This document shows positions 30,189 to 61,120 of a stretch of DNA of 64,000 bases, one piece after another. Each line of letters opens with the position of its first letter. Within the stretch, counting starts at the first letter, position 1. The translations under genes and the position numbers were made by a program. The notes beneath the pieces were generated by a model. That model was given only the letters and a program-made list of their open reading frames with translations, was not told the DNA's origin and did no database searches. Source of the DNA: Candidatus Omnitrophota bacterium (GTDB taxonomy: Bacteria > Omnitrophota > Gorgyraeia > Gygaellales > Profunditerraquicolaceae); contig JBAZJY010000001.1 in NCBI GenBank assembly GCA_041651115.1, forward strand, positions 581,165-645,164. The letters are read 5' to 3'.

Positions 30189-30198
30189 TCCTCGTCAA

Positions 30199-30271
30199 CA
30201 GGGGCGGAGGGACTTGAACCCCCAGGACGGGATTTGGAGTCTCGCCGTTTAGCCAATTAACGGACGCCCCT
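30199..30271 (-). tRNA. trnW: tRNA-Trp (anticodon CCA)
   Basis: Manual fold of minus strand: AGGGGCG acceptor, anticodon loop CUCCAAA, T-loop GGTTCAAGTCC; CCA tail not encoded. One A-C mismatch in the anticodon stem. Confidence 0.85.
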
Positions 30272-30317
30272 ATAACTTAGTAAAAACTGGCAGCCAGAAA
30301 TAACTGCCAGCAAAAAA

Positions 30318-30507: not shown

Positions 30508-30580
30508 AGCTGGAGACGGGAATTGAACCCGTGACCCCGTCCTTACCAAGGACGTGCTCTACCAACTGAGCTACTCCAGC
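30508..30580 (-). tRNA. trnT: tRNA-Thr (anticodon GGT)
   Basis: Manual fold: GCTGGAG acceptor, D-loop AGTTGGTAGAGC, anticodon loop UUGGUAA, T-loop GGTTCAATTCC, discriminator U. Confidence 0.9.
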
Positions 30581-42835: not shown

Positions 42836-42911
42836 TAGGGACGGTTCTCAGTCCAAGGGAAAAGTGTCCCCACCCGGGGACATTTTTCTCCTTGGCTGAG
42901 AACCGTCCCTA
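42836..42911. repeat. family-1 palindromic repeat element, copy A (TAGGGACGGTTCTCA ... TGAGAACCGTCCCTA, nested inner hairpin GTGTCCCC/GGGGACAT)
   Basis: 76-bp near-perfect hairpin; its last 3 nt (cta) form the hisA TAG stop. Confidence 0.85.
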
Positions 42912-43628
42912 AATCCTCAATGCCTGCGTCAGGGTAAACTTACCCTCATACAAGGCCTTTCCGATAATTATTCCGCTGACTCCGTCTTTTTCCAATAATT
43001 TCAATTTCATTATATCTTCAAGAGAAGATATTCCACCGGAAGCGACAACCTTTAATCTGCTTTCCTTAAGCAGGGCTTTTATCCCTTTGATGTTCGGCCC
43101 TTTTAACATACCGTCTTTAGATATATCAGTGTAGATCACTTCTTTAAATCCCAGCGCCTTAAGCTGCTTTGCCAGGCTTACTGCCTCAAGCTTGGTGCTT
43201 TTTTCCTGCCAGCCCTTAACCAGCACCTGTCCGTCACGGGCATCTATGCTAACAATAACTTTATTTTTAAATTTCTTAAAAGCCTCTTTTAAAAACGTGC
43301 TGTCTTCAATGGCTTTTGTGCCCAGCACAACCCGGGAAACTCCGGCATCAAGCAGGGCTTTGATAGTTTCAATTTTCCTGACCCCGCCGCCGAATTCAAG
43401 CGCGGCCCGGGTTTGCGCTGCGATCTGCTTTACGATTTCCAGGTTTTTCGGGATGCCGGTCGTCGCGCCGTCTAAGTCTACGACATGGATCAGCTGCGCG
43501 CCCTGCCTAAGCCAATGCTTGGCAACCTTTATGGCGTCGCGTGAATAAATCTTTTTATCTTTAAGCCGGCCCTGGGTAAGCCTTACCACGCAGCCGTCTT
43601 TTAAATCTATCGCCGGTATGATCAACAT
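42909..43628 (-). CDS. hisA: 1-(5-phosphoribosyl)-5-[(5-phosphoribosylamino)methylideneamino]imidazole-4-carboxamide isomerase
   Basis: 239 aa TIM-barrel HisA. Confidence 0.93.
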   Translation of the reverse strand: MLIIPAIDLKDGCVVRLTQGRLKDKKIYSRDAIKVAKHWLRQGAQLIHVVDLDGATTGIPKNLEIVKQIAAQTRAALEFGGGVRKIETIKALLDAGVSRVVLGTKAIEDSTFLKEAFKKFKNKVIVSIDARDGQVLVKGWQEKSTKLEAVSLAKQLKALGFKEVIYTDISKDGMLKGPNIKGIKALLKESRLKVVASGGISSLEDIMKLKLLEKDGVSGIIIGKALYEGKFTLTQALRI

Positions 43629-44234
43629 TTATATTTGTATAAAATTTTTCAGTATCTTTATCCCGGTTTCCTGGCTCTTTTCCGGGTGAAACTGCACGCC
43701 ATACACATTATCTTGCCTGACGATCGCGGAAAATTCAAGGCCGTAATTCGCCGTTGCCGCTGTTACCACTGTTTCTGACACTGCGGGATAATAAGAATGG
43801 CAGAAATATACGTAACAGCCATCCTCCAATCCCGTGAACAAAGGACAATCTTTCTGCCGGAACTTTAAGGTATTCCAGCCCATATGCGGCACTTTTAAGC
43901 TGCTGGAAGCCTTGAATTTCTTTACCGAGCCTTTTATAATACCAAGCCCGGGCTTTTTGCCTTCTTCGCTTTTATCAAATAAAAGCTGCATGCCAAGGCA
44001 AATGCCTAAAAATATCTTTTTCGCGGCGATTGCCTCTTTGATTGCCGCGGATAAACCGCGTTTTTCTAACTCTATGGCAGCGTCGTCAAACGCCCCTACT
44101 CCGGGAAGCACGATCTTGGCGCATTGCTTGATCTCTTGCGGCTTATTGGTTACCAGGGTTTCTGCGCCTAAAACTTCCAGCGCTTTCTGAACGCTGTGAA
44201 TATTACCCATTCCGTAATCAATAATGCCGATCAT
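43629..44234 (-). CDS. hisH: imidazole glycerol phosphate synthase glutaminase subunit
   Basis: 201 aa class I GATase with Cys-His-Glu triad. Confidence 0.93.
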   Translation of the reverse strand: MIGIIDYGMGNIHSVQKALEVLGAETLVTNKPQEIKQCAKIVLPGVGAFDDAAIELEKRGLSAAIKEAIAAKKIFLGICLGMQLLFDKSEEGKKPGLGIIKGSVKKFKASSSLKVPHMGWNTLKFRQKDCPLFTGLEDGCYVYFCHSYYPAVSETVVTAATANYGLEFSAIVRQDNVYGVQFHPEKSQETGIKILKNFIQI

Positions 44235-44839
44235 TAATCAATTACCCCTTTTGTAGAAGGAATGCCTTTTCTGCGCGGGTCAATTTGCGTAGCCTGGTCC
44301 AAGGCAATGCCCAGGGCCTTAAATACCGGCTCCAATGTCGCGTGCAAATCCTCGCTGGGATTTTCTACTTTTATGTTAAGATTCATCCCTAATTGCTGCG
44401 CAAGCGATTCAAAGAAATGCTGCGCATACTCCATTTCATATTTTTCTTTGTTTTGCACGCTGGTAAGCGCGGCCAAGGTACTAGGAACTAATTTAAACGA
44501 AGGCCGGCCGCTGATATCAACCGTAACGCCTGCGGTTACGTCTTCCATCGGTGCCGAAGCGCTGCCTATGCGATTTATTCCCTTTTTATCTCCCAATGCT
44601 TCTTTAAAAGCCTGTCCCAAGACAATCCCCACGTCTTCATTCGTATGGTGTATGTCTACTTTTAGGTCGCCCTTGGCCGTAATCTCTAAATCAAAATGCC
44701 CCCAAAAAGCAAAGAGCTCAAGCATATGGTCCAAAAAACCAATACCGGTATTAATTTTTGATTTTCCCTCTCCGTCAATATTTAACTTTATGGAAATCTC
44801 TGTTTCGGTTGTTTTTCTTATTTTTTCGGCTTCTCTCAT
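44234..44839 (-). CDS. hisB: imidazoleglycerol-phosphate dehydratase (monofunctional)
   Basis: 201 aa IGPD family. Confidence 0.9.
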   Translation of the reverse strand: MREAEKIRKTTETEISIKLNIDGEGKSKINTGIGFLDHMLELFAFWGHFDLEITAKGDLKVDIHHTNEDVGIVLGQAFKEALGDKKGINRIGSASAPMEDVTAGVTVDISGRPSFKLVPSTLAALTSVQNKEKYEMEYAQHFFESLAQQLGMNLNIKVENPSEDLHATLEPVFKALGIALDQATQIDPRRKGIPSTKGVID

Positions 44840-46062
44840 TGAAACCTCGCTTTCACCGATTCAAGGTGTTTACTTAAGCCCTCTATGCCGGCTATCTTTT
44901 CTAATGGCTCGCGTACCTTTTCCAGCGCCTTCTTGGAATAACTGATAATGTGGTTAGACTTGATGAAATCAAGCGCGGAAAGCCCGGAGAAAAACCTTGC
45001 CGTGCCGCCGGTAGGAAGCACGTGGCTCGGGCCTGCCACATAATCACCAACCGCAGCCGGGCTGTATGGCCCTAAAAATATTGCCCCGGCATTGCGGATG
45101 CTCCTTAAAAGCTTCTGCGGGTTATTTACGAGTATCTCCAAATGTTCAGGCGCGATCTTATTGGCAACCTCTGCTGCCTGCTCAAGGTTCTTAGTTAAAA
45201 TAATAAATCCGTTTATGCCTGCGGTTTGCTGCTCCACTTCTTTAGCCAGGCTTTTAGAATTCGTGATCAATATCGCCAGTCCGCCGGCATGCTCCTCCTG
45301 CGCTTTTAAGTCGGCAACGATAAATTTAGGATCGCTGTGGCGGTTGGCAATAATTACCAGCTCTGTAGGGCCGGCAATCATGTCAATATCCACAATCCCG
45401 AAAACCTGGCGCTTTGCTTCACTGACGTAAATATTACCCGGGCCAACAATCTTATCAACTTTAGGGATGGTCTTTGTGCCGTAAGCAAGCGCGGCAATAC
45501 CTTGCGCACCGCCAACGCGGTAGATCTCATCCACCTTCAGAAGATTAGCCACCACCAGGATATGCGGATTGATGTGCCCGGATTTATCCGGCGGGCTGAT
45601 CAGGACGATCTTCTTTACTCCGGCGATCTTTGCCGGCAGCACGGTCATATAGACCGTTGAAGCAAGAGGCGCGGTCCCTGCCGGGATATAAACACCCACT
45701 CTTTCAAGCGCTGTATAATTCTCACCCAGCACAAGGCCGTCTCCGCCTTTGATCCTCCAGGACTTCCTGATCGTTTTACCGTAAAAGCGGTTTATATTTT
45801 CAATGATCACTTTTAAGCTGGAAACAAAATCCGGGCTGATACTTTGATAAGCGCCGCTGATCTCAATTGCCGCGACTTTAAGCTGCCGGGGCGTCATCTT
45901 GACCTTATCAAATTTTTTCGTGTATTTTAACAGCGCCTCATCACCCAAAAGCCTGACGTCTTCAATAATATGCCTTACTTTTTCACTGACCCGCTTGGAA
46001 TGATTAATACGGCAGTTATAGATCTTTTCCAGCTTCTTGGAATTAAAACGGATTATTTTCAT
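44836..46062 (-). CDS. hisD: histidinol dehydrogenase
   Basis: 408 aa HisD family; 4-nt overlaps on both sides. Confidence 0.93.
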   Translation of the reverse strand: MKIIRFNSKKLEKIYNCRINHSKRVSEKVRHIIEDVRLLGDEALLKYTKKFDKVKMTPRQLKVAAIEISGAYQSISPDFVSSLKVIIENINRFYGKTIRKSWRIKGGDGLVLGENYTALERVGVYIPAGTAPLASTVYMTVLPAKIAGVKKIVLISPPDKSGHINPHILVVANLLKVDEIYRVGGAQGIAALAYGTKTIPKVDKIVGPGNIYVSEAKRQVFGIVDIDMIAGPTELVIIANRHSDPKFIVADLKAQEEHAGGLAILITNSKSLAKEVEQQTAGINGFIILTKNLEQAAEVANKIAPEHLEILVNNPQKLLRSIRNAGAIFLGPYSPAAVGDYVAGPSHVLPTGGTARFFSGLSALDFIKSNHIISYSKKALEKVREPLEKIAGIEGLSKHLESVKARFQ

Positions 46063-48665
46063 AGTTTGATTTGGCTGATGATGTTTTTCAATTCTGCCAG
46101 CGCTGCGTCAATGCCTGCCGGGTTATTGCCGCCTGCCTGCGCAAAATCCTTTCTTCCGCCGCCTGATCCTCCGATAAAACCTGCGGCTTTATTTACCAAT
46201 GCCGCAGCATCTATGCCCTTTTGCGTCAGATCGGCAGTAACGCCGATCACCAACAGGGCTTTATCGGAAGCCGTGGATGCCAAGGCAATGACTGCTCCCG
46301 CGGTTTTTTGCTTGATCAAATCTACTGCGCTGCGCAAAGCAGCCATATCTGCTCCGGGAATATTTTTTGCGATAAGCTTTAAGCTGCCGATCTTTTCTGC
46401 TGATTGAGCCAACTCATCTACCGAAGATTTTACCGTATTTATTTTTTGAGAATTAAGCTGTTTTTCCAGCTCTTTTATCCGGCTAAGCCGTTTCTCTAAT
46501 TCAACTGCCATTTCTTCTTTTTCCTGCTTCACTGCCTGCAAGGCCGCAAACCCGGTTACCGCCTCTATCCTCCTTATACCGCTGGCTACCGAGCCTTCGC
46601 TGGCAATCCTAAATAATCCGATCTGGCCGGTTGAATCAAGATGCGTGCCGCCGCAGAATTCGCGGGAAAACCCGCCGATAGAAACTACGCGCACTTTGCC
46701 TTCGTATTTTTCCGCAAAGAATGCCAATGCCCCGGTCTTTTTCGCGCTTGCCAAAGGCATTTCTTTTACCGAGAGGCCGTGGCTGCCGAGAATATAGCTA
46801 TTAACTGTTTCTTCAATCCGGCTAAGCTCGCTGTCGCTGACAGCCTTAAAATGGCTGAAATCAAAACGCAAGCGGCCTGCCTCAACTAATGAACCTTGCT
46901 GCTGCACGTGCGGGCCAAGGACCTGCCTTAAGGCTGCCTGTAAAAGATGCGTGGCAGTATGGTTTCTGGCAATGGAAAGCCTGCGCTCTATATCAACTTT
47001 TGCCAAAACCTGGTCTGCTTTCTTAAAAGCGCCTGCCTTGACCTTGCCGCTATGAAATATTATCTTACCTGATTTTTGCGTATCTGTAACTTCAAAGATA
47101 TTCTTTCCCTTAACCAGCACGCCGGTATCGCTAACCTGGCCGCCGGACTCGGCATAGAACGCGGTTTTATCAAGGGCGATCTGCACCTGCTCATCCTTGC
47201 CGGCTTTTTTCACCTGCTTGCCGTCTTTAATGATCGCCAGGACCTTGGCAGAAACTTCATAATTCTTATATCCGGAAAACTTTGTCGCGGCAATATCCAA
47301 TTTTAATCCTCCGGAAGCAAACACGTCACCTTTCATATTGCTCTGGGATTTTGAACGCTGCCTTTGCTGCTGAAGGTTCTCATCGTACAGCTTCATCGCT
47401 GTCAACGGCACGCTGCCAAATTTTTTTTCCAGCCAGCTGATGATCAACTCCAGCGGCAAGCCGTAGGTATCGGTAAGCTTAAAAATGGAATCAGCGGTTT
47501 TTCGGCTATTGCTTAAGCCTTTTTCTCCTTCAAAAGCCTCTTTTAAATACCTATCGCTGGAATCCAGAATGGCGATAAAATTCTTTTCTTCCGCCTGGAT
47601 TACTTGCGCAATATCCTCCCGGCGAACGGATAGTTCAGGATACGGGCCTTTCATGATCTCCGCTAATACCGGCACAAGTTTATGCAAAAACGGCTTTTCT
47701 ATGCCCATCTGGCGCAGCGCAAGCACGGATTTACGGATTATTTTTCTCACCACGTAACCGCGGCCCTCATTGGAAGGCAAGATACCGTCGTAAATGGAAA
47801 AAACTACGGCGCGGAGATGATCGGCTACGGCATAAATAAGTTCGTTAGAAGGGGTTGTCCCCAAAGAGGACTGTCCCTTAACTTGTCCTTGCCGTATTTC
47901 CTTTATTATCGGTTGAAAAATGTCCGTCTCAAAATTATTCGGCGCGCCCTGCATTACTGCTGCCAGGCGCTCAAGGCCCATACCGGTATCAATGTTTTTC
48001 TGCGGCAAAGGCTCAAGTACGCCCCCATCCTTACGGTTAAACTGCGTGAACACAAGGTTCCAGATCTCCACAAACCTGCCGCAGGGGCAAGACGGATCAC
48101 AAACCGGTTCTCCGCAGCCCTTGTCTTTTCCGAAATCATAGAATATTTCCGAACACGGCCCGCACGGCCCATTCGGGCCTTTTTCTTTTGCTTCTGCCGG
48201 CCAAAAATTATCTTTATCTCCCAGCTTGACGATCTTATTTACCGGGACGCCGATCGCATCCTTCCAAATTTTATATGCCTCATCGTCATCTTTATAAACC
48301 GAAACCCAGAGTTTTTCCGGGCTGATCTTCAGTTCCTGGATCAGGAATTCCCATGCCCACCTGATCGCATCCTTTTTGAAATAATCCCCAAAAGAAAAAT
48401 TCCCCAGCATTTCAAAGAACGTGTGGTGGCCGGCAGTCTTGCCCACTTTGTCCAGGTCGTCGGTGCGCAGGCAGCGCTGGGAAGTTGCTGCCCTGCGAAA
48501 ATCGCCTACCTCCCCGAGGAATTGTTTTTTAAACTGGTTCATCCCCGCAGGCGTAAAAAGCACGGTAGGGTCTTCTTTAGGCACCAGCGAGTCGCTTTCA
48601 ACGACCCGATGTTTCTTCGCTTTAAAAAAATCCAGGAATTTTTTTCTCAAGATATCTGCTGTCAT
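46059..48665 (-). CDS. alaS: alanine--tRNA ligase
   Basis: 868 aa class II aaRS with editing domain and C-Ala domain. Confidence 0.95.
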   Translation of the reverse strand: MTADILRKKFLDFFKAKKHRVVESDSLVPKEDPTVLFTPAGMNQFKKQFLGEVGDFRRAATSQRCLRTDDLDKVGKTAGHHTFFEMLGNFSFGDYFKKDAIRWAWEFLIQELKISPEKLWVSVYKDDDEAYKIWKDAIGVPVNKIVKLGDKDNFWPAEAKEKGPNGPCGPCSEIFYDFGKDKGCGEPVCDPSCPCGRFVEIWNLVFTQFNRKDGGVLEPLPQKNIDTGMGLERLAAVMQGAPNNFETDIFQPIIKEIRQGQVKGQSSLGTTPSNELIYAVADHLRAVVFSIYDGILPSNEGRGYVVRKIIRKSVLALRQMGIEKPFLHKLVPVLAEIMKGPYPELSVRREDIAQVIQAEEKNFIAILDSSDRYLKEAFEGEKGLSNSRKTADSIFKLTDTYGLPLELIISWLEKKFGSVPLTAMKLYDENLQQQRQRSKSQSNMKGDVFASGGLKLDIAATKFSGYKNYEVSAKVLAIIKDGKQVKKAGKDEQVQIALDKTAFYAESGGQVSDTGVLVKGKNIFEVTDTQKSGKIIFHSGKVKAGAFKKADQVLAKVDIERRLSIARNHTATHLLQAALRQVLGPHVQQQGSLVEAGRLRFDFSHFKAVSDSELSRIEETVNSYILGSHGLSVKEMPLASAKKTGALAFFAEKYEGKVRVVSIGGFSREFCGGTHLDSTGQIGLFRIASEGSVASGIRRIEAVTGFAALQAVKQEKEEMAVELEKRLSRIKELEKQLNSQKINTVKSSVDELAQSAEKIGSLKLIAKNIPGADMAALRSAVDLIKQKTAGAVIALASTASDKALLVIGVTADLTQKGIDAAALVNKAAGFIGGSGGGRKDFAQAGGNNPAGIDAALAELKNIISQIKL

Positions 48666-49123
48666 AGCTCATTCACCACGTCAATGACCACGTCCGGAGA
48701 AAAACCGCGGCGGATAAGGTAACCGTAAATGCGCTGCCTTATCTTTTGCGGGTCAACGTCCTTCATTTTTTCTTTTCTCCTGCGGGCAATCTCTAACGCT
48801 GTTTCTGTTTCCGGATAATCTTCTTTTATCCGCGCGACCTCGCCTTCAATCAAACGCTTATCAATGCCTTTAAGCGCCAGCTCCTGCGCGATCCGCCTTG
48901 CCCCCATGCCTTTTTTTAAACGGGAATCGGCCCATCCCCTGGCAAAGGCTGCATCATCAATAAATTTTTTTTCTTTTAAGAAATCTATTGCCTTGCGGAT
49001 TACCGGCTCATCAAATTTCTTTTTCTTAAGGCGGCTGCGCAGCTCGTTTTCGCTGCGCAATCGGAATTTTAAAAGCAGAAAACAATAGTTCTTTGCTTTT
49101 TCAAACGGCGTTAAACCTAGCAC
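48662..49123 (-). CDS. recX: recombination regulator RecX
   Basis: 153 aa helical-repeat RecX family immediately after recA. Confidence 0.8.
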
Positions 49124-50135
49124 GGATTTCCTTTTCCAGGTCCTGCTGCAGCTTCGGCCTTTCTTTCATCAGCTTGATCACCGAATCCCTGCCCTGGCCG
49201 ATCTTTTCATTCTGGTAGGAGAACCACGCCCCGGACTTCTCCACGATATTCAGGTTGACTGCGGCATCAAACGTGCTGATCGTCTTGGATATACCTTCGT
49301 TATGCAGTATCTCGAACTCTGCCTCTCTAAACGGCGGAGCCACTTTATTTTTTACTACCTTTACGCGCACGCGGTTGCCGATCACCATTTCATTGGCTTT
49401 AAGCGTGGCGATCTTCCTTATGTCCAGCCTGACGGAACAGTAGAATTTCAGCGCCCTGCCGCCGGGAGTAGTTTCCGGAGAACCGAACATCACGCCGATC
49501 TTTTCCCTGATCTGGTTGATAAAGATCACGCAGGTGCGTGATTTACTGATCGCCGCGGTAAGCTTACGCAGCGCTTGCGACATCAGCCGCGCCTGCAGGC
49601 CCATATGCGAATCGCCCATGTCCCCTTCGATCTCCGCGCGGGGAGTAAGCGCAGCAACCGAATCAACGACAATAAGATCAACGGCATTGGAACGCACTAA
49701 GGTTTCTGCGATCTCCAGTGCCTGCTCGCCGGTATCCGGCTGGGAGATCAAAAGGTCATCCAGATTCACGCCGATGATCTTGGCATAGGTGGGGTCAAAA
49801 GCATGCTCTGCGTCAATAAAAGCGGCAACGCCGCCTTTTTTCTGGATCTCTTTTATCGCGCTTAAAGTAAGCGTGGTCTTGCCGGATGCTTCCGGCCCGA
49901 ATATTTCAATGATCCTGCCGCGCGGAAGGCCGCCTACACCTAAAGCAATATCCAGGGTAATCGCGCCCGTAGGGATTACCTCTACGTCTGCCTTTACTTC
50001 CTGGCCAAGCTTCATGATCGAACCTTTGCCAAACTGTTTCTCTATCTGGGTAAGCGCCAATTCCAGCGCCTTTTGCCGGTCTGAACTTACCTTTATTTCT
50101 TCTTTCTTTTTTTCTACAACCATATCCGCCTCCAA
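49101..50135 (-). CDS. recA: recombinase RecA (ORF as called starts at TTG; likelier start is the ATG at 50121-50123 preceded by GGAGG)
   Basis: Walker [11 protein letters not shown], conserved RecA core. Confidence 0.97.
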
Positions 50136-50169
50136 TTTAATTGATTTTTAGCTTTTAGGTTAGAAATTG

Positions 50170-50199
50170 ATTATATCTTAACGGGTTACACGTGTCAAA
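50170..50199 (-). promoter_or_regulatory. consensus sigma70-type promoter for recA (TTGACA-17-TATAAT) with 8-bp palindrome ACACGTGT overlapping the -35/spacer
   Basis: Minus strand reads TTGACACGTGTAACCCGTTAAGATATAAT about 45 nt upstream of the recA ATG. Confidence 0.6.
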
Positions 50200-50226
50200 C
50201 AGATTAATTCACCCCCCTTCCAGTAA

Positions 50227-50296
50227 ACCCCGCCAAAAAAAGGCGGGGTAAGTTCGGACGCATAAGTTATGTCGCTCCGTTCCATAACTTATGTCC
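50227..50296 (-). promoter_or_regulatory. family-2 two-hairpin motif, copy 3, immediately downstream of the tonB-like gene and upstream of the recA promoter
   Basis: CCCCGCCAAAAAAAGGCGGGG, TAAGTTCGG, GGACGCATAAGTTATG-loop TCGCTCCGTTCC-CATAACTTATGTCC. Confidence 0.5.
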
Positions 50297-50334
50297 TCAC
50301 TTAATAGACGAAGGCGATATGCAAATCTAACTAT

Positions 50335-51051
50335 TTATTCTACTTCAAAGGAAACTACGACATTGAACGTAAGCTCGGGATATTCCAGGTCTTTAGGAAA
50401 GGCGGGGAATGGCGAAGATTCTCTTACGCTGGCCATGGCGATCTCCCTTAAATAAGGGCTGGCTGAAGACCGGTCATCATCAACGCGCACGTCTTTTATA
50501 TCGCCGCTGTTAGAGACGATAAAAGAAAGGTAAACTTCCCCTTCTTCCATGTAGGTATAGCGCTGGTAAAGTATGCGCTTAACTTTTTCCCGGGTAAGTT
50601 GAAAATACCCGATATAAGAAGGGCTGTTGATCTTATTCAGATCTAAATTTTCCCGGGGCGCTGCCAGAGTTATTTTCTTTTTAACGCTGCCGATAGTATC
50701 CGGGCGTATCAACGCCGGTTTAATAAGGACGCGGCCTCCGCGGCCAAGGTCCTTTTTTTTGCCGGGCTGCAATTCCTGTTTATCCGTAAACGGCGAGGGC
50801 GCTGACGCAGAAGCAGAGATAAACGACGGTAATTTAAGCAGCGGTTCCCGCTTGGGCCTTAGGCTGGCCTTAGGCTGGCTATGCGTAGGCTGGAGGTTCT
50901 CTTGTTTTTTGCTTTCAACGTATTTTACCTCTACCTGCACCGTATCAGGCTGCCGTAGTATAGAGTAAAATCCCGGCATGCGTAACAGGATCACTAAATG
51001 GACCAATAGCGACAATACAATCGCGGTAAGAAACGGCCGTTTGGTTAACAT
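50335..51051 (-). CDS. TonB family protein (N-terminal TM anchor, Pro/Lys-rich spacer, TonB C-terminal domain)
   Basis: 238 aa; hydrophobic N-terminus, C-terminal ~90 aa TonB-like fold signature; located right after btuB. Confidence 0.7.
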   Translation of the reverse strand: MLTKRPFLTAIVLSLLVHLVILLRMPGFYSILRQPDTVQVEVKYVESKKQENLQPTHSQPKASLRPKREPLLKLPSFISASASAPSPFTDKQELQPGKKKDLGRGGRVLIKPALIRPDTIGSVKKKITLAAPRENLDLNKINSPSYIGYFQLTREKVKRILYQRYTYMEEGEVYLSFIVSNSGDIKDVRVDDDRSSASPYLREIAMASVRESSPFPAFPKDLEYPELTFNVVVSFEVE

Positions 51052-51087
51052 AATCCTAGGTTAGCATAAAAGGGCCATAAGTCAAGG

Positions 51088-51163
51088 TAGGGACGGTTCT
51101 CAACTCAAAGCTAAAGTGTCCCCTTGGAGGGGACACTTTACGATTGGCTTGAGAACCGTCCCT
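51088..51163. repeat. family-1 palindromic repeat element, copy B
   Basis: TAGGGACGGTTCTCAACTCAAAGCTAAAGTGTCCCCTTGGAGGGGACACTTTACGATTGGCTTGAGAACCGTCCCTG between btuB stop and tonB-like start. Confidence 0.85.
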
Positions 51164-51167
51164 GAAT

Positions 51168-53024
51168 TTAAAACTCAAGTTTTAGCCCACCGGTGGCGGA
51201 AAATCCGGGCATTGGATAATCGCGGATAACTTGATATCTCCTCGCGGAAAGATTATCCACCGAGCCAAAACAGGTTACTCCCTTAGAAAATTTCTTTGAC
51301 AAACCGAGCCCAAAAACAAAAAATCTTTTTACGGAAATAGAATTGGCGGCATTATGGAACCTTTTATCCGTAAACTGGCCCTTGAATTCAAAGACAACCC
51401 CCTTAAAACCCTTATACCTCAACAAAAGGTCCGCTTTATTCTTAGGCTGATATATCAGGTATTTTCTGGTTTTATCATCTATCGCCCGCATATAAGTATA
51501 GTTAAGTCCTAACTCCAGATTATCAAGGAGATAAAAGGTATTGCTGAATTCTACGCCGTCAATCAATGCCGACCCGATATTTGTAGGGCTCCATACGCCG
51601 TTGTCATCGGCAGCCCAATTGATCAACTGCTTGTAAACGCTTCGATAGTACGTTACGCCCGAAGAGAAATATTCGCAGGGTTTAACATCAATGCCAACCT
51701 CCCCGGTCGTCCCCTTTTCGGGCCTAAGGTTTGGGTTGCCCTTTGACCAGCCTTCATCCGGCCAATACAAGTCGTTAAAGGTAGGCGCGCGGAAAGAACG
51801 CGCAACCAGGCCGTGTAATTTAATATTTTCTGATATTTTATAAACCGCGCTCAGGCTGGGGCTGAATTGCGCACCGAAATTTGAATAGTCATCTACCCTT
51901 GCGCTGAAGTTCAGCTTAAATTTAGAAGTTACATCCCACTGGTTTTCCATGTAAGCTGCCTTGACATTATATTTATGTTTTGCCGAAGACGTACTATCGT
52001 TATAGTTACCTACATAATTCAAACCGCCGATCAACTGATAAAAATCAAAGAGCTTACGGTTAAATTGCAGCTCAAGCCCCCTGGCTACCGTTGAATGGAT
52101 GTTTTTAGCATTAGCTGAATCAAAGATTGAACCGGCGCTGTTCTCAATGAATTCCAGGCGGTCATAATTACGGTAGATCCTGGCAGAAAAGCCCGTAAGA
52201 TTATCCGGCTTAAAATTCCAGGCCAAATCAAGGTAATTCGTAAGAGCCAGCTGCTTATCATCCGTATCGGGAGAACTGACAGCTCCGGGCAGGCCTGACT
52301 TATTCCTGTAAAATCCGGATCCCAGCCTAAGTGTACTGCTATCGTTAAGGCGGTATTCAAATTTAGCGTTTGCATCTTTGGAGTTGACCTTGGAATTATC
52401 ACGGAAACCTTGCGAGCTCAAGTAGCCTCCGCTAAAAAGGTAACCAAAACCCCCCACCCTGCCGCCGTGAAGCAACCGGTCGGTATAAGTCCTGAAAGTG
52501 CCAAAGCTGGAGCTGACCGACGTCTCAAATCCTTTTATGGGAGGCTGCTTAGTGATAATATTGACGGTGCCGCCCATTGCCTGTGAGCCGTATAAACTGG
52601 AAGCCGGACCATGGACAACTTCAATCCGTTCGATATTGTCTAAGGGAATCGTGCTGAGGTCAACTTGCCCGCTGCGCGGATTATTCACCGGCCTGCCGTC
52701 AACGGTAACTAGGACCTGTTCTGCCGTGGAACCGCGCATCCTGATACTCTTTAATTCGCCTACTCCGCCATAATCACTGATATCGACTGAAGTCAAACCC
52801 GTCAAAGCCGCGGCAACATCTTTTGCCCCGGAATATTCGATCTCTTTTGCGGTAACCACGTCCACGCTGCAGGCAGTATCACCGCAATATTCTTCTATCT
52901 TAGACGGAGTTACGACTATTTTTTCCAGGTCGATATCTCCGGCGCTTGAGCTGCCTGCCGCAACCGAAAATAATAAAACCGCCGCTAATACTATGCTAAA
53001 TAAATATTTCATATTCCTGTCCAT
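51168..53024 (-). CDS. btuB: TonB-dependent outer-membrane receptor, BtuB-like (vitamin B12/corrinoid transporter)
   Basis: 618 aa, signal peptide, TonB box EKIVVTPSK, plug plus 22-strand barrel size, C-terminal Phe; preceded by a cobalamin riboswitch. Confidence 0.85.
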   Translation of the reverse strand: MDRNMKYLFSIVLAAVLLFSVAAGSSSAGDIDLEKIVVTPSKIEEYCGDTACSVDVVTAKEIEYSGAKDVAAALTGLTSVDISDYGGVGELKSIRMRGSTAEQVLVTVDGRPVNNPRSGQVDLSTIPLDNIERIEVVHGPASSLYGSQAMGGTVNIITKQPPIKGFETSVSSSFGTFRTYTDRLLHGGRVGGFGYLFSGGYLSSQGFRDNSKVNSKDANAKFEYRLNDSSTLRLGSGFYRNKSGLPGAVSSPDTDDKQLALTNYLDLAWNFKPDNLTGFSARIYRNYDRLEFIENSAGSIFDSANAKNIHSTVARGLELQFNRKLFDFYQLIGGLNYVGNYNDSTSSAKHKYNVKAAYMENQWDVTSKFKLNFSARVDDYSNFGAQFSPSLSAVYKISENIKLHGLVARSFRAPTFNDLYWPDEGWSKGNPNLRPEKGTTGEVGIDVKPCEYFSSGVTYYRSVYKQLINWAADDNGVWSPTNIGSALIDGVEFSNTFYLLDNLELGLNYTYMRAIDDKTRKYLIYQPKNKADLLLRYKGFKGVVFEFKGQFTDKRFHNAANSISVKRFFVFGLGLSKKFSKGVTCFGSVDNLSARRYQVIRDYPMPGFSATGGLKLEF

Positions 53025-53027
53025 CTT

Positions 53028-53150
53028 CTCCTCCCATGAGAATACTTGCCAAAACAGGCAATCGACCGGGCTTACCGCCGGAGGCGGAATTACCGTTGCA
53101 GGGCAGCACCCCGGATCTCACGGGGATTTCCTTTACCTGTCCGGAAGAAT
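53028..53150 (-). promoter_or_regulatory. cobalamin riboswitch (minimal aptamer) in btuB leader
   Basis: Minus strand: GGAAATCCCCGTGAGATCCGGGGTGCTGCCCTGCAACGGTAATTCC ... GTAAGCCCGGTCGATTGCC. It parallels the E. coli btuB element (GGGAATCCAGTGCGAATCTGGAGCTGACGCGCAGCGGTAAGG ... AAGCCCGAAGACCTGCC) as recalled from memory. It starts at the stop codon of the upstream PP-loop gene. Confidence 0.6.
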
Positions 53151-53768
53151 TACTTGTTGTAATAACCTGAACTCTACCGGCCTTTTAAAAATAGGGCCGT
53201 CATAAACAAAAGTGTGAAATTCTCCCTCCTCTCCGCATGGGTCAATCGCAGGATCGTAACGCCGCAGGTCCTCGATAAACCGCTTGTCCAACTCTCTGCC
53301 CAACCATTCCTCTCCCAACACGCCGGCCTTGACGCAGACTATCACTGCCTTGAATCCGCAATTAATAAAATCACAAAGGATATCTTTTGTATTTAAGCCC
53401 CACAAAGGAAAAACCGGTTTTATATCTGATTCTTTACAGACCCGGTCAATCCATTCTTTGTGTTCCTTTAAATAAATATCGCCGAAAATTATCGCCTCAA
53501 TGCCCTTATTTACTTTCCATTCGGCGATCAAGTTTTTAAATTCCCGCTCATATAGTTCCGGGCCGGGCATTGGTTTCTGAAATAACGGCAACCCGCAAAC
53601 CCTTGCCTGATCCGAGATCAAACGGGGATCAAGGCCGTGAGAAAGTGAAGCCGTGCCGTCAAGCTTCGTGAAATTAAAAAGTGCCGTAACCTTATAGCCG
53701 CGCGACATTGCCTTGTAACAGGCAAAACAACTGTCTTTACCGCCGCTCCAGAGGGAAACCGCCTTCAT
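53133..53768 (-). CDS. PP-loop ATP pyrophosphatase of the Dph6/MJ0570 (diphthine-ammonia ligase-like, ATP_bind_4) family, embedded in the cobalamin operon
   Basis: 211 aa; N-terminal MKAVSLWSGGKDSCFACY PP-loop (SGGxDS), family-typical EGEFHT motif near C-terminus; start overlaps cobQ stop by 4 nt. Confidence 0.75.
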   Translation of the reverse strand: MKAVSLWSGGKDSCFACYKAMSRGYKVTALFNFTKLDGTASLSHGLDPRLISDQARVCGLPLFQKPMPGPELYEREFKNLIAEWKVNKGIEAIIFGDIYLKEHKEWIDRVCKESDIKPVFPLWGLNTKDILCDFINCGFKAVIVCVKAGVLGEEWLGRELDKRFIEDLRRYDPAIDPCGEEGEFHTFVYDGPIFKRPVEFRLLQQVILPDR

Positions 53769-55342
53769 TGCGCCTTTCCTTTATTTAGTATCTTATAGAG
53801 ATAACTGATATCAATACTTTCCCGGACTAATTTTGCCAGTTTATCGATCTGGGCATCAGGATTAAAATCTGCGGCACACGATAATGCCGGCCAGCCTTTC
53901 ATGAGCCGCGCCCTGTTTAAAAATTCCCTGCGAAATCCCGGGGCATCGAATAAGCCGTGGATGTATGTGCCGAAAATACGGCCGTTATTGCTGCAGGCGC
54001 CGTCAAAATACTTTACCTTTCTGCCGCTGCGCTCAAAGACTTCAAAAAGCGGTTTGCAACTTTTGGGTACCGTAGTAACGCCATGGTGGATCTCATAACC
54101 TAACAATTCAATTCCCGAAAATAATGCCCTTGCCCTTACGCGGCTAAGCTCCTTTTTCGCCATTAAACGCGTTTGCACGGGTAAGAGTTTTAAGCCGGCT
54201 ATTTTTTTACGGCTGGATTCTATTGAATGCTTGTCGGAGATCAGCCTGCCCAGCATCTGGTAGCCGCCGCAAATCCCCAACAGCACAGGCGGAAACTTTG
54301 AGCCGACAGCCGATAAAATCTTTTTTACAAAACCCGAGGCATGCAAATGTGCCAGGTCAAAAAGGGTATTTTTTGTCCCCGGGATAACTATCATATCCGG
54401 CTTGCCTAATTCTTCCGGCCGGCTCACATAACGCAAGCTTACGTCAGTTTCGGAAGAAAGGGCGTCAAAATCGGTGAAATTGGAAATATGCGGCAGGTAT
54501 ATTACGGCGATATCCAGTTTCTGCTGTTTTTCTTCTGACGGGCCTGCCGTAAAATTATCCAAAGGCACGGCGTCTTCTTCGGGGATCACTATGTTTTTAA
54601 AATAAGGAATAACCCCCAGCACCTTGATACCGGTGCGCCTTTCAAGCCATTTGAGCCCCGGATCCAAAAGGCTCTTGTCCCCGCGGAATTTATTGATGAT
54701 AAATCCTTTGATCATCCGCCGCTCAGCTTTAGTCAAAAGCTCAAGCGTTCCTACTAACGAAGCAAAAACTCCTCCTTTGTCAATATCGCCGACCAGTATC
54801 ACCGGGGCTTTTGCGTATTGCGCCATTTTCAGATTCACGATATCATGCGACTTTAAATTGATCTCTGCCGGGCTGCCTGCCCCTTCCATAACCACGGCTT
54901 CATACTTTTTGCTTAATGTATCAAATGATTTTTTGACTACCGGAATGAGCTTAGCCTTGTAACGCGTATAATTGCGGGCATTCATATTGCCGATCGGCTT
55001 GCCGCGGACAATCACCTGCGCTCCGACATCGGTAACCGGCTTGATCAAAACCGGGTTCATATCCACGTCAGGCTCAATGCGGCATGCCAACGCCTGCACT
55101 GCCTGCGCGCGGCCAATCTCGCATTCATCTTTTGTGACAAAAGAATTCAAGGCCATATTCTGCGCCTTAAAAGGGCAAACTTTGTAGCCGTCCTGCAGGA
55201 GTATCCGGCATAGCGCCGAAACCAATACACTCTTACCTACTCCCGAACCTGTGCCGCAAATTTGTAGTGCTTTGGCTTTCATTTGATAAAGGCTTTCCCG
55301 GCAATAATAAAAAATAAAATCGTTAATTCGTTTAATTCGCAC
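53765..55342 (-). CDS. cobQ: cobyric acid synthase (CobQ/CbiP); probable true start at MKAKALQICGTG (about 55282)
   Basis: 525-aa ORF; N-terminal dethiobiotin-synthetase-like ATPase domain, C-terminal class I GATase. Confidence 0.85.
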   Translation of the reverse strand: MRIKRINDFIFYYCRESLYQMKAKALQICGTGSGVGKSVLVSALCRILLQDGYKVCPFKAQNMALNSFVTKDECEIGRAQAVQALACRIEPDVDMNPVLIKPVTDVGAQVIVRGKPIGNMNARNYTRYKAKLIPVVKKSFDTLSKKYEAVVMEGAGSPAEINLKSHDIVNLKMAQYAKAPVILVGDIDKGGVFASLVGTLELLTKAERRMIKGFIINKFRGDKSLLDPGLKWLERRTGIKVLGVIPYFKNIVIPEEDAVPLDNFTAGPSEEKQQKLDIAVIYLPHISNFTDFDALSSETDVSLRYVSRPEELGKPDMIVIPGTKNTLFDLAHLHASGFVKKILSAVGSKFPPVLLGICGGYQMLGRLISDKHSIESSRKKIAGLKLLPVQTRLMAKKELSRVRARALFSGIELLGYEIHHGVTTVPKSCKPLFEVFERSGRKVKYFDGACSNNGRIFGTYIHGLFDAPGFRREFLNRARLMKGWPALSCAADFNPDAQIDKLAKLVRESIDISYLYKILNKGKAQ

Positions 55343-56025
55343 ACTGCGCCCAAAGTATCGCCGGTTATCCCGCCGATCTTGCGGCTGATTAATTTAGAAA
55401 ATAGCCATGCGCTAAAACCCGCGAGCATGAAAAGCAATAGGCCGTTTAGCTGCCATAGCATTATCGCAATAAACAAAGTAACCCCGGTTGCCATAAAAAA
55501 TATTCTCCGGCTCATATGCGCGGTAAAAGTTTTTGCCTTGCCTTCGCTACGGGCATAGGGAAAGAAAAACATCGCTTCCACCAATGACCAGCGGCTTAAA
55601 ACGCACATAAATATTAAAGCCGCGGGTTTATCCTGCGGCGGGAGAGAAAAAACAAGCCCAGTCTTCAGCAATACCGCGCAGACAATGCTGATCACGCCCA
55701 TTGCCCCGCTGTGCGGGTCGCGCATGATCTCCAGGCATTTTTCCCTGCTTCTGCCGCTCATTAAACCGTCAAATGTATCGGATAAACCATCCAGATGCAT
55801 ACCTCCGGTAAGCGCTGCCAACGCCACAACTAAAATTATCGCGGCCGGCAGCTCATAAAAATGCAGAGCGATCAATACTGCGTTCAAACCAACCAAAGCC
55901 ATCCCGATCAGCAGCCCGGCTAAAGGAAAATAAAGCATGGACCTTGCTATCTTGCGCTCATTAACATTTTTAACGCGCAAGGGAATGACGGTCAGGAATT
56001 GTATGGCCAGTAAAAAACTTGTCAC
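55279..56025 (-). CDS. cobS: adenosylcobinamide-GDP ribazoletransferase (cobalamin synthase)
   Basis: 248 aa polytopic membrane protein of CobS family. Confidence 0.85.
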   Translation of the reverse strand: MTSFLLAIQFLTVIPLRVKNVNERKIARSMLYFPLAGLLIGMALVGLNAVLIALHFYELPAAIILVVALAALTGGMHLDGLSDTFDGLMSGRSREKCLEIMRDPHSGAMGVISIVCAVLLKTGLVFSLPPQDKPAALIFMCVLSRWSLVEAMFFFPYARSEGKAKTFTAHMSRRIFFMATGVTLFIAIMLWQLNGLLLFMLAGFSAWLFSKLISRKIGGITGDTLGAVCELNELTILFFIIAGKAFIK

Positions 56026-57080
56026 TTGCTTTTCTCCGAAACGTTTGCGCTTTGGAACGTCGCCATTTGTGTGAGGATCTTTACGGAAGCCTCTGCCAAT
56101 CCGATTGCTATGGCAGCGCCCGTGCCTTCACCCAGCCTTAAATTCAGGTCAAACAGCGGCTTTAAGCCGATATGCTCTAAAATATATTTATGCCCGCCTT
56201 CTACCGAATTATGTGCCGCGATCATATAATCTTTTACTTTCGGCTCAAGGTAATAAGCGATCAGCGCTGCCGAACCGGAAATAAATCCGTCGATCACTAC
56301 GGGAACTTTCTTACTTGCCGCTGCCAGGATTATTCCGGCAAGCCCGGCAATCTCAAAACCGCCGACCTTAGACAACACATCAAGGCTGTCTTTAGGGTCA
56401 GGTTTGTTCACTGCCAGGGCCTTTTCAATTACTGCGATCTTATGTTTTAATCCTTTGTCATCAAGACCCGCGCCGCGGCCGGTGATCTCATCTAACGGCT
56501 TTCCGGTAAAAACAGCGGTTATTGCGCTGGCAGCAGTGGTGTTACCAATGCCCATTTCACCTGTGCCGATAATATCAGCCCCGCGCCGGAATTCATTTTC
56601 AAATACCTCAAATCCGGCAACCACCGCCCTTATTGCCTCATCTCTGCTCATTGCCGGGCCTTTTGCCATATTCTTGCTGCCGTAGGCAATCTTTTTAATT
56701 ACCAGGCGCGGATCAGGACGCAGGTCTGAAGCTACTGCCATATCCACGATCACTACTCTTGCTCCGGCGTGATTTGCTAGAACATTGATCCCTGCGCCGC
56801 CGGCAAGAAAATTATAGACCATTTGCGCAGTTACTTCTTTAGGATAAGGGCTTACTCCTTCATCGGTCACACCATGATCGGCAGCAAGCGTAAAAATCAC
56901 TTTGTTACCAAGATACGGGTTATCTTTTCCAGTGATCCCGCAGACCTGTCTTGCTAATTCCTCCAACTTACCTAAACTGCCCAAAGGTTTAGTCAGATTA
57001 TTAAGCCGGCCCTGGGTCCTCTCCATAAGCTTTATGTCAAGCCCGCTGATCTGCGTAGTTATCTTTTTAACCCTTTCCAT
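56022..57080 (-). CDS. cobT: nicotinate-nucleotide--dimethylbenzimidazole phosphoribosyltransferase
   Basis: 352 aa CobT family. Confidence 0.88.
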   Translation of the reverse strand: MERVKKITTQISGLDIKLMERTQGRLNNLTKPLGSLGKLEELARQVCGITGKDNPYLGNKVIFTLAADHGVTDEGVSPYPKEVTAQMVYNFLAGGAGINVLANHAGARVVIVDMAVASDLRPDPRLVIKKIAYGSKNMAKGPAMSRDEAIRAVVAGFEVFENEFRRGADIIGTGEMGIGNTTAASAITAVFTGKPLDEITGRGAGLDDKGLKHKIAVIEKALAVNKPDPKDSLDVLSKVGGFEIAGLAGIILAAASKKVPVVIDGFISGSAALIAYYLEPKVKDYMIAAHNSVEGGHKYILEHIGLKPLFDLNLRLGEGTGAAIAIGLAEASVKILTQMATFQSANVSEKSK

Positions 57081-57081
57081 T

Positions 57082-57603
57082 TTATCCTTTCTTAATTTTC
57101 ATCGGTATGCCGGAAACCGTAAAAAATACTTCATCGGCTTCTTTGGCTACCAGTTGATTTACCCTGCCGGCAATATCGCGGAACTGCCTTGCCAGCTTAT
57201 TTGCCGGGACTATACCTAAGCCGACTTCATTAGAAACCAGAATTACTTTTGATTTCCCCTGCTTTAATGCCGTAAGCATTTTTATTACCTGCTGCGTGAT
57301 CTTTTCTTCTTTATTCCCGCCAAGCAGAAGATTAGAGACCCATAATGTCAGGCAATCTATAACAATGCAGTCAAAATTATTCTTTATTTGCCCTAATGCG
57401 ACGGTAATATCCCGGCCTTGCTCAAAGGTAGCCCAGCTTTTTGGCCGAGACTGTTGATGTTTTTTAATGCGCTGCCGCATTTCTTTATCTAAGCCCCGGC
57501 AGGTTGCCACAAAGGCCACCTTTTTATGTTTTTTTGCCAACTCCAGGGCAAAGCTGCTTTTCCCGCTGCGCGCTCCGCCTAAAATAAAAATTATTTTTCC
57601 CAT
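57082..57603 (-). CDS. cobU: bifunctional adenosylcobinamide kinase / adenosylcobinamide-phosphate guanylyltransferase
   Basis: 173 aa, P-loop GGARSGKS, CobU/CobP family. Confidence 0.88.
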   Translation of the reverse strand: MGKIIFILGGARSGKSSFALELAKKHKKVAFVATCRGLDKEMRQRIKKHQQSRPKSWATFEQGRDITVALGQIKNNFDCIVIDCLTLWVSNLLLGGNKEEKITQQVIKMLTALKQGKSKVILVSNEVGLGIVPANKLARQFRDIAGRVNQLVAKEADEVFFTVSGIPMKIKKG

Positions 57604-58235
57604 TTCTTTTTAGTAGGGACGGTTCTCAAGCCAATCTTAAAGTGTCCCTTTTTAGGGGACAGTTTAGCTTTGAGTTGAGAACCGTCCCTCTTGTATTCAA
57701 CTACTGTGACGCTTGCCGGTTTAGGGATATGCTGCCAGAATTTCCTTGACTTAAGCAGGCTGCTGACAAAAATGCCGATCACTCCGCCGTGGCAGACAAC
57801 GGCGACGGTTTTATCCGGATTGGCGCGGCAGATCTGGTTGATCTGGCCGCAGATGCGCTCCTTAAAATCGCGTAGTTTTTCGGCTTTGGGGATATGGTGC
57901 CTATGCGGATCCTTAACCCAATTCTCATAAAGCGCGCCATATTTTTTTAAGATCGCCTTATGCCGCAGGCCTTCAAGCACCCCGAAATTTATTTCACGCA
58001 AGCCCTTTACCTTGGTGAATTTACTTTTACCGAAAACAATGCGGCAAGTCTCCAGCGCCCGCTTCTTATCGCTTGAATAGATTTTATCAAAACCGATGCC
58101 TTTAAGCGCGGATGCCAGTTTCTTTGCCTGCCGTTTTCCTTCCCTGCTCAAGCCCACATCAATGCGGCCGCAATAACGTTTCTCTTTATTCCAGGCCGTG
58201 ATCCCATGGCGGATCAAGACCAATCTCGTGTTCAT
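57591..58235 (-). CDS. cobC: alpha-ribazole-5'-phosphate phosphatase (histidine phosphatase family); C-terminal ~25 aa encoded by family-1 repeat copy C
   Basis: 214 aa, RHG catalytic motif (LIRHGITAWN); reads through 57614-57689 element and stops 13 nt inside cobU. Confidence 0.8.
   Translation of the reverse strand: MNTRLVLIRHGITAWNKEKRYCGRIDVGLSREGKRQAKKLASALKGIGFDKIYSSDKKRALETCRIVFGKSKFTKVKGLREINFGVLEGLRHKAILKKYGALYENWVKDPHRHHIPKAEKLRDFKERICGQINQICRANPDKTVAVVCHGGVIGIFVSSLLKSRKFWQHIPKPASVTVVEYKRDGSQLKAKLSPKKGHFKIGLRTVPTKKKWEK
57614..57689. repeat. family-1 palindromic repeat element, copy C, in frame inside the 3' end of cobC
   Basis: TAGGGACGGTTCTCAAGCCAATCTTAAAGTGTCCCTTTTTAGGGGACAGTTTAGCTTTGAGTTGAGAACCGTCCCT. 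Confidence 0.85.
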
Positions 58236-60832: not shown

Positions 60833-61063
60833 CTTATAAAAAAAATTCCCGATCCGGTATCTTCTACCATGATCGGGTCGCACCCAGCTTGCTATGGCCC
60901 TATCCACGAGGCTGCACATGCACAGGCAGGTCTTCTGACTCAAGGATCATCCTACTCGCTGCGCCTTCCCGGCCGGCTTAACGCGGCAGTGGCTTTTGCA
61001 GCTTTCGTCCCCTCTTACAGCAGCGGGACTGTGGCCGGTTTAAACGGCCTTCCCTAACCCATG
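60833..61063 (-). promoter_or_regulatory. cobalamin (AdoCbl-type) riboswitch with intrinsic terminator expression platform, leader of btuFCD-cobCUTSQ operon
   Basis: Minus strand: GGTTAGGGAAGGCCG ... GGCCACAGTCCCGCTGCTGTAAGAGGGGACGAAAGC ... AAAGCCACTGCCGCG ... B12 box GAGTCAGAAGACCTGCC (60925-60941); terminator hairpin CCCGATCATGGTAGAAGATACCGGATCGGG then AATTTTTTTTAT (60833-60877). Confidence 0.9.
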
Positions 61064-61120
61064 CATTGATTTATATGTTTTAGGTTACACCGCTAAAGAA
61101 ATATTGTCAAGCAATTATTA

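Follow-up and report, generated by a model that had tools for sequence, protein, structure and literature searches.

The stretch of DNA considered here, referred to below as the window, comprises 64,000 nucleotides from a Candidatus Omnitrophota bacterium (assembly GCA_041651115.1, contig JBAZJY010000001.1, positions 581,165 to 645,164 of the forward strand). It carries three copies of a 76-nt inverted-repeat element, which an earlier note made from the letters alone had described as a family of nested palindromes. The copies are very probably doublets of the REPIN type, in which two short repetitive extragenic palindromic (REP) units stand in inverted orientation. The two units would correspond to the two ends which, elsewhere in the Omnitrophota, bracket one gene of the REP-associated tyrosine transposase family (RAYT, also TnpA-REP), the gene itself being missing from the window elements.

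Each copy is a doublet of two inverted units of ~35 nt, and each unit runs from an outer tag YAGGGACGGTTCTCA through a connector of ~10 nt to an inner tag AAAGTGTCCCC. The positions and arms first reported for the three copies were all confirmed in the sequence, as was the inner hairpin, which has the form AAAGTGTCCC(C)/GGGGACA(C/G)TTT in three of three copies (Table 1). The conserved terminus is YAGGGACGGTTCTCA; all three copies share the left T alone, their right ends being CCCTA, CCCTG and CCCTC. The 13-mer GGGACGGTTCTCA has six exact matches in the window, three forward and three reverse, against a chance expectation of 0.78 in dinucleotide-preserving shuffles (maximum 4, with 0 of 100 reaching 6), and a search allowing up to two mismatches found no further matches in the window beyond these six. 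The inner-hairpin 11-mer is not enriched outside the elements in the window. The connecting segments had been said to vary, and the connectors do differ, but not at random: alignment in both orientations gave ~90% identity between copy 3 and copy 2 once flipped, copy 3 being the reverse complement of copy 2, and the connectors of copy 1 differ from those of copies 2 and 3 and are better paired. Since copy 3 is copy 2 flipped and the connectors are structured, the elements are not true palindromes and have a polarity. Folded as RNA, each copy gives one long hairpin (-41 to -64 kcal/mol, z -9 to -12). As single-stranded DNA the doublets fold at -26 to -37 kcal/mol and single halves at -4 to -9 kcal/mol.

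Table 1. Positions of the elements, their parts and other features; coordinates are those of the window unless a scanned locus (L number) is named.
Feature	Position	Strand	Remarks
Element copy 1	42836..42911	no strand	very probably REPIN-type, 76 nt; connectors most fully paired (GTCCAAGGG/CTCCTTGGC)
Element copy 2	51088..51163	+	76 nt; left half with A-type connector ACTCAAAGCT, right half B-type (reverse complement AGCCAATCGT)
Element copy 3	57614..57689	-	76 nt; equals copy 2 in opposite orientation
Outer tag, copy 1	42836..42850	+	example of the family's invariant 13-15-nt tag YAGGGACGGTTCTCA
Outer arm, copy 1	42897-42911	-	
Outer arm, copy 2	51088-51102	+	
Outer arm, copy 2	51150-51163	-	
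Outer arm, copy 3	57614-57628	+	
Outer arm, copy 3	57676-57689	-	
Inner hairpin, copy 1	42861..42886	no strand	AAAGTGTCCCC-loop-GGGGACATTTT
Inner hairpin, copy 2	51113-51139		equivalent to that of copy 1
Inner hairpin, copy 3	57639-57665		equivalent to that of copy 1
Empty site, hisB/hisH	44229..44239	-	hisB (IGPD) stop overlaps hisH (GATase) start as TAATG
hisA-like gene	42909..43628	-	His_biosynth
TonB-dependent receptor gene	51168..53024	-	
cobC-like ORF	57591..58235	-	His_Phos_1; 214 aa
Cobalamin riboswitch	60908-61077	-	Rfam RF00174, 95 bits
tRNA-Trp(CCA) gene	30198-30272	-	unrelated to the elements
tRNA-Thr(GGT) gene	30508-30580	-	unrelated to the elements
Tag array, L088	6850-7081		
Tag array, L098	4462-4586		
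Tag array, L075	1533-1600		
Tag array, L075	2540-2605		

The genes adjoining all three copies lie on the minus strand throughout. Copy 1 fills an 89-nt spacer between the hisA-like gene, whose stop codon TAG is supplied by the terminal TAG of the element, and a peptidoglycan-binding-domain gene (PG_binding_1, start 42819). Copy 2 lies 4 nt downstream of the stop of the TonB-dependent receptor gene, and 36 nt separate it from the gene that follows (start 51051). Copy 3 is located within the 3' end of the cobC-like open reading frame (ORF), the last ~32 codons of which are element-encoded (RDGSQLKAKLSPKKGHFKIGLRTVPTKKKWEK) and which overlaps the cobU start at 57603. The copies had been placed at the 3' ends of hisA, btuB and cobC; the gene names hold, but copy 3 is inside the end of cobC and not after it. 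The C-terminus of the cobC-like product is chimeric, with ~15 native codons known from L035 (NGLPKIKKFNETKHLE) replaced by element-encoded residues, and the cobC of L049 also reads into its own element, in a different frame. The cobalamin riboswitch heads the minus-strand operon btuF-like/ABC/cobC/cobU/cobT/cobS/cbiA.../btuB, which is home to copies 2 and 3, so that both lie within a B12-regulated transcript. At the elements themselves Rfam gave no family at gathering or permissive thresholds, with sub-threshold miRNA-hairpin noise only.

The three copies belong to a much larger set. When one genome per species was scanned for a two-arm pattern, the arms standing 35-65 nt apart, at least 112 loci were returned, and among the matches listed 76 copies, the window's three included, share the architecture of the window elements; the counts of copies given below refer to these listed matches. 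Their hosts are metagenome-assembled genomes (MAGs) labelled Omnitrophota/Omnitrophica, several MAGs labelled 'Planctomycetales' and one unclassified MAG, and a single MAG (STC_87) holds at least 16 copies on 15 loci. A position-frequency table of 152 halves gives the half-element consensus Y-A-GGGACGGTTCTCA-A, a connector of ~10 nt, and AAA-[G/C]-T-GTCCCC. The short units are mostly extragenic and dispersed, with 3 of the 76 copies fully spanned by an ORF. The window corresponds to none of the scanned genomes and is syntenic with four of them at 64-72% DNA identity, which makes its source a related Omnitrophota-like organism; in the ENA the source contig is ERZ27247363 k141_682277. The same two-arm pattern had 0 matches in viral contigs, giving no phage link. 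Searches of open-access text turned up no description of these elements or of the tag sequence, the tag returning only two unrelated C. elegans papers; joint mentions of Omnitrophota with RAYT, REPIN or MITE were incidental ones only. MAGs labelled 'Planctomycetales' that carry the Omnitrophota-type element include L002, L011, L013, L028, L031, L032, L040, L048 and others; either both of these PVC-related groups are covered by the family, or these bins are mislabelled.

The evidence that ties the family to a transposase comes from six Omnitrophota loci (L077 and L113-L117), in all of which a transposase gene stands at the position of the 4-5-nt loop, with one half-element on each side of it in inverted orientation. 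At L077 the left half AGGGACGGTTCTCgAAACAAAGCTAAAGTGTCCCC and the right half AGGGACACTTTAGCTTCAGCTTCAGAACCGTCCCT enclose an ORF of 175 aa; this ORF is the same gene as the homologues of 156-161 aa, read from an upstream TTG. The other five loci are homologues from independent assemblies, with the upstream half present in five of five, ~60 nt before the start codon, and the downstream half no more than 25 nt from the stop wherever the contig continues (the contig of L114 ends inside it). In the assemblies' own annotation the Omnitrophota proteins have 156-161 aa. Their sole domain is Y1_Tnp (Pfam, 50-77 bits against a cutoff of 23), and among NCBIfam models the REP-associated tyrosine transposase scores best, with 54-77.5 bits (70-77.5 for the Omnitrophota proteins) compared with 21-29 for IS200. 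The HUH and Y---NP (class-2) motifs are invariant (H60, H62, Y120, N124, P125), and the only relative in the PDB is E. coli TnpA-REP (4ER8, E = 3e-4). The gene neighbourhood is fixed as mnmG, RAYT, apgM, nrd in L077, L113, L115 and L116, and L117 has mnmG and nrd only; apgM (phosphoglycerate mutase) and nrd (ribonucleotide reductase) are both on the opposite side from mnmG. RAYT homologues number more than 1,600, and most of their clusters occupy 1-4 contigs each. Bertels et al., 2017 (PMC5581495) describe a fixed chromosomal position of this sort for RAYTs that are inherited vertically.

Two further observations concern these transposase genes. The leader between the upstream half and the RAYT start in L077 and L113-L117 reads TGTTAGAAA...CGTCTATTATATT...GGAGGTG and is kept among species with 63-88% protein identity; presumably it is a promoter and ribosome-binding site. 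A divergent RAYT paralogue of 196 aa, 43% identical to the L077 type, is found at L049 (162-752) beside cobC and not at the mnmG locus. The paralogue is followed by GTCCCC-type remnants only, and upstream of it the contig ends. More than one RAYT lineage may be present in some Omnitrophota.

Comparison of orthologous junctions shows the elements both present and absent. The hisB/hisH junction, empty in the window, is filled in the Omnitrophota MAG SO_2017_LW4_85 (L106 5647-5723), and the site downstream of hisA, which holds copy 1 in the window, is empty in L106, with a spacer of 19 nt. The junction downstream of btuB is filled in L074 also, with connectors that differ from those of copy 2, and the cobC/cobU junction is filled in L035 and L049 also, with connectors and a left boundary that differ from those of copy 3. 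At the latter junction the cobC C-terminus is complete in L035, shortened by ~5 codons in L049 and by ~15 codons in the window. With many copies in many related genomes and orthologous sites both filled and empty, the suggestion of a dispersed family of REP/MITE-like palindromes (MITE standing for miniature inverted-repeat transposable element) has been borne out. The earlier note had named the absence of further copies and of insertion polymorphism as its refutation; further copies were found, and so was polymorphism, between species. At L106 (5630-5740) a Shine-Dalgarno-like GAGGAG stands just upstream of the element and the hisH ATG 8 nt downstream, and the two would reach normal spacing only if the 75-nt hairpin forms; this element could be a structure-dependent coupling device, or the arrangement could be a coincidence.

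The internal sequences also bear on how the copies arose. Over the internal 47 nt the best pairs within a genome are 94-98% identical and random pairs between genomes at most 91%, and this higher identity within genomes points to copying within lineages. The connectors fall into types A (CAAAGC) and B (CAATCT), and A/B heterodimers number 35 against 20.5 expected (p = 4e-4), with no B/B copy. Of the six RAYT loci, five have an A-type upstream half; L113 has a B-type downstream half, and so, by eye, has L116, classed by the script as 'other' since its connector begins with G. The excess of A/B doublets, taken with the connector types beside the RAYT gene, gives the doublets the appearance of left ends joined to right ends. 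Selection on inner-stem complementarity was considered and set aside, the slight excess (34/70 vs 25.2 expected, p = 0.03) being too weak.

On this evidence the window elements would relate to the RAYT locus as a MITE does to its parent insertion sequence (IS), that is, as the ends without the gene, and by analogy with other systems they have probably been moved in trans by a RAYT encoded outside the window. If the biochemistry of IS200/IS605 and TnpA-REP is a guide, such a RAYT, encoded elsewhere in the genome, would recognise the tag and hairpin in single-stranded DNA, cut it via a 5'-phosphotyrosine intermediate, and move or copy the doublet into new single-stranded sites without duplicating the target. 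With a median intergenic gap of ~4.5 nt in these genomes, insertions are wedged between a stop codon and the next ribosome-binding site, where they sometimes supply the stop codon (as for hisA) or replace the C-terminus (as for cobC). Transcribed within operons, the elements should form very stable RNA hairpins, and putative effects on mRNA decay, termination or translational coupling would be a side consequence.

Several points weigh against this interpretation. The scan required exact arms, so that its design dictates the consensus at these 13 positions, the other positions being informative. The comparisons of filled and empty sites are all between species that are only 64-72% identical in DNA, and at the three junctions filled in several species the sequences do not separate recurrent insertion from replacement or from an old insertion that has since drifted. 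Strain-level polymorphism did not turn up, a metagenome scan with the TonB-like neighbour giving one 42%-identical locus only. The NCBIfam RAYT scores lie just under the 80-bit equivalog cutoff, and the elements lack the canonical 5' GTAG/GTGG tag of RAYT-associated REPs, having in its place the tag of 13-15 nt YAGGGACGGTTCTCA. The RAYT of this genome is itself unseen: tblastn found no RAYT homologue in the 64-kb window, and the statement that the window holds no transposase stands for RAYT homologues, other transposase families not having been searched for. We also know of no direct demonstration in vivo of RAYT transposition for this class.

A different explanation is that the elements are selected cis-regulatory RNA hairpins, acting as operon-internal terminators, attenuators or 3' stabilisers and spread by function. 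All three window copies lie in co-directional operons, 0-4 nt from a stop codon, their RNA folds are very stable, and the inner hairpins, which carry weakly T-rich tails (on the transcribed strand in copies 1 and 2), registered in a terminator scan. REPs in E. coli are reported to stabilise upstream mRNA and, near stop codons, to affect translation. The placement of the elements, however, does not differ from that of the null. In the median, a copy stands 3 nt away from the upstream stop and 14 nt away from the next start, and 59 of 65 lie between co-directional genes; element-free junctions in the same loci are 89% co-directional (p = 0.84) with a median spacer of 4.5 nt. Preferential insertion between co-directional genes or after stops was rejected on the same comparison. 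Orientation relative to transcription, used as a proxy for replication-strand targeting, shows no bias (15:10, p = 0.42, small n), and copies 2 and 3 are opposed within one operon. No T-run or U-tract follows the full hairpins of the three window copies, terminator-like sites in the region number 26 against 23 in shuffles, without excess, and no Rfam family is matched. Function would also leave unexplained why the halves bracket a transposase gene. As the origin of the family we consider this explanation unlikely; as a secondary effect it is compatible with the elements being doublets of RAYT ends. A regulatory role is neither supported nor excluded, and a hairpin so stable inside a polycistronic mRNA likely has some effect.

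Less probable still, to the point of being very hard to sustain, is an origin by deletion from a DDE insertion sequence with TA as the target that it duplicates, which would make the elements MITEs of the Correia, IS630 or mariner type. TA stands on either side of copy 1, and at the matching place the empty L106 site shows one TA; 58% of the termini are TA, and the terminal inverted repeats and the size are MITE-like. Across the copies, though, the termini are TA/TA in 21, CA/TA in 22, TA/TG in 18 and CA/TG in 7, so that TA stands at both ends in only 21 of 76, and the outermost Y of YAGGGAC at one end varies independently of that at the other. No target-site duplication was found when this was judged on the 76 copies, a result in keeping with a Y1 transposase and one that speaks against an origin of the IS630/mariner or Correia type. 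The sole gene found between halves is a Y1/HUH transposase, in six of six loci, and no arm-bounded DDE transposase turned up among the loci listed (at least 112), where tblastn covered RAYT only. The 'Correia-like' alternative of the earlier note was thus not upheld. A local duplication, or a conserved operator for a his/cob regulator in place of a genome-wide family, would suit three copies within 15 kb, two of them in the cobalamin operon, but can be practically dismissed given at least 112 loci in many genomes, contigs and unrelated gene contexts and, in the 13-mer search at up to two mismatches, no degenerate copies in the window such as a tandem or segmental duplication might leave.

The tag itself is not confined to the Omnitrophota. 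Its 13-14-nt form GGGGACGGTTCTCA occurs in Clostridia, Lachnospiraceae, Butyrivibrio, Olsenella, Propionibacteriales, Micropruina and one Myxococcales-labelled MAG, where it is followed by short lineage-specific hairpins, often in arrays; in Actinomycetota and Clostridia the arrays consist of several forward units followed by several reverse units with a period of 20-33 nt. In the Clostridia locus L075 two forward and two reverse units, 1 kb apart, surround an ORF of 255 aa, the product of which has a Pfam Y1_Tnp domain and a C-terminal helix-turn-helix (HTH) domain (HTH_23/HTH_28). Its best NCBIfam model is again the REP-associated tyrosine transposase, and Omnitrophota L077 is among its homologues in the loci retrieved. 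Across phyla the tag is the same, though the associated transposases are only ~40% identical. We put forward tentatively, as a possibility that we would rate below even, that the Omnitrophota carry an old, vertically inherited REPIN-RAYT partnership with a fixed mnmG/RAYT/apgM locus, placed on a Group 1/TIRYT-like branch, the tag GGGGACGGTTCTCA being identical in RAYT-flanking repeats of Clostridia, Actinomycetota and a Myxococcales-labelled MAG. If this were true, long-lived REPIN populations would reach beyond the Proteobacteria, and the tag would offer an unusually long conserved single-stranded DNA recognition motif for the structural study of RAYT specificity.

REPIN-type doublets, as we read them, and the RAYT that belongs to them are now on record for a candidate phylum whose genomes are small and extremely compact. 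The type of mobile element is an ordinary one in bacteria; the searchable literature is without a description of it in the Omnitrophota. In such genomes a 76-nt insert enlarges the typical intergenic spacer more than 10-fold. The elements also account for odd gene ends in Omnitrophota MAGs, namely repeat-supplied stop codons, chimeric C-termini (cobC) and spurious TTG starts. The right arm TTGAGAACCGTCCC offers an in-frame TTG that is often called as the start of the downstream gene (start-side distances of -16), a likely source of mis-annotated starts in these MAGs, and the elements are likely places for assemblies to break. The family could be used to mark lineages and, in metagenomes, to probe populations for insertion polymorphism, and the cross-phylum tag of 13-14 nt is a concrete substrate for asking how RAYT/TIRYT enzymes read DNA, on a branch without GTAG REPs. 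The parts most worth following are the identity of the tag across phyla and the fixed chromosomal locus.

Among known systems, the REPIN-RAYT concept (Bertels and Rainey, 2011, PMC3116915; Bertels et al., 2017) and the REPtrons of E. coli TnpA-REP (PDB 4ER8; PMC3479197) share most of the arrangement seen here. In both cases two inverted short palindromic units form a long hairpin, many dispersed copies are extragenic, and the same units bracket, in inverted orientation, a single Y1/HUH gene whose position is fixed in several species; the target is not duplicated and the two halves of a doublet tend to differ. The differences lie in the host, which is Omnitrophota and not Proteobacteria, in the single half, which is a weak outer-tag/inner-tag hairpin and not a tight GC-rich stem, and in the protein, which is only remotely similar to E. 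coli TnpA-REP and scores under the NCBIfam RAYT cutoff. Position -3 of the 152 halves is T in 57% and G in 13%; hence these are not canonical GTAG REPs.

Correia/NEMIS, RUP, ERIC and other DDE-derived bacterial MITEs are like the elements in size, have terminal inverted repeats, lie between genes, are transcribed together with their neighbours and are occasionally fused in frame to ORFs; the elements differ from them in showing no consistent TA duplication and no DDE parent element, the parent gene being that of a Y1 transposase. The CGTC-tagged REPs are likewise small palindromic repeats, often in head-to-head dimers downstream of genes, and the complement of the tag contains CGTC (GAACCGTCCC). 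These REPs have stems of 8-9 bp, loops of 4-5 nt and a CCA tail, and no transposase goes with them (Di Nocera et al., 2013); a place for the elements in the CGTC-REP superfamily was rejected because the structures differ and that family is without a transposase.

Di Nocera et al., 2013 (PMC3733652) also described TIRYTs and TIRtrons, in which RAYT-like genes are flanked by non-GTAG inverted repeats that have GGGGWSAS in common; some of these terminal inverted repeats make up families of moderate abundance, in a dimeric arrangement. Quentin et al., 2018 (PMC6006769) equated TIRYT with TnpA-Y1 subclass 2.1 and with RAYT Group 1 of Bertels et al., 2017. Members of the subclass are long, with a C-terminal HTH (Bac_DnaA_C, HTH_23 or HTH_28), and no REP-like structures were found next to their genes (Quentin et al., 2018); Group 1 has been reported from many classes, including Clostridia (Bertels et al., 2017). 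The Omnitrophota proteins differ in being short and without a C-terminal HTH, and the outer tag GGGACGGTTCTCA, the one best conserved, differs from GGGGWSAS by a single position. The gene-proximal arm, GGGGACAC or GGGGACAG, nevertheless fits GGGGWSAS in five of the six Omnitrophota loci, the exception being L117, which reads GGGACAG after TAG. The corresponding arm of L075 is GGGGACAG, and the L075 protein, flanked by the same tag, has the HTH tail of subclass 2.1. As judged by shared motif and published description, and not by clustering with reference sequences, TIRYT/TIRtron appears to be the closest published description of the system found in the Omnitrophota.

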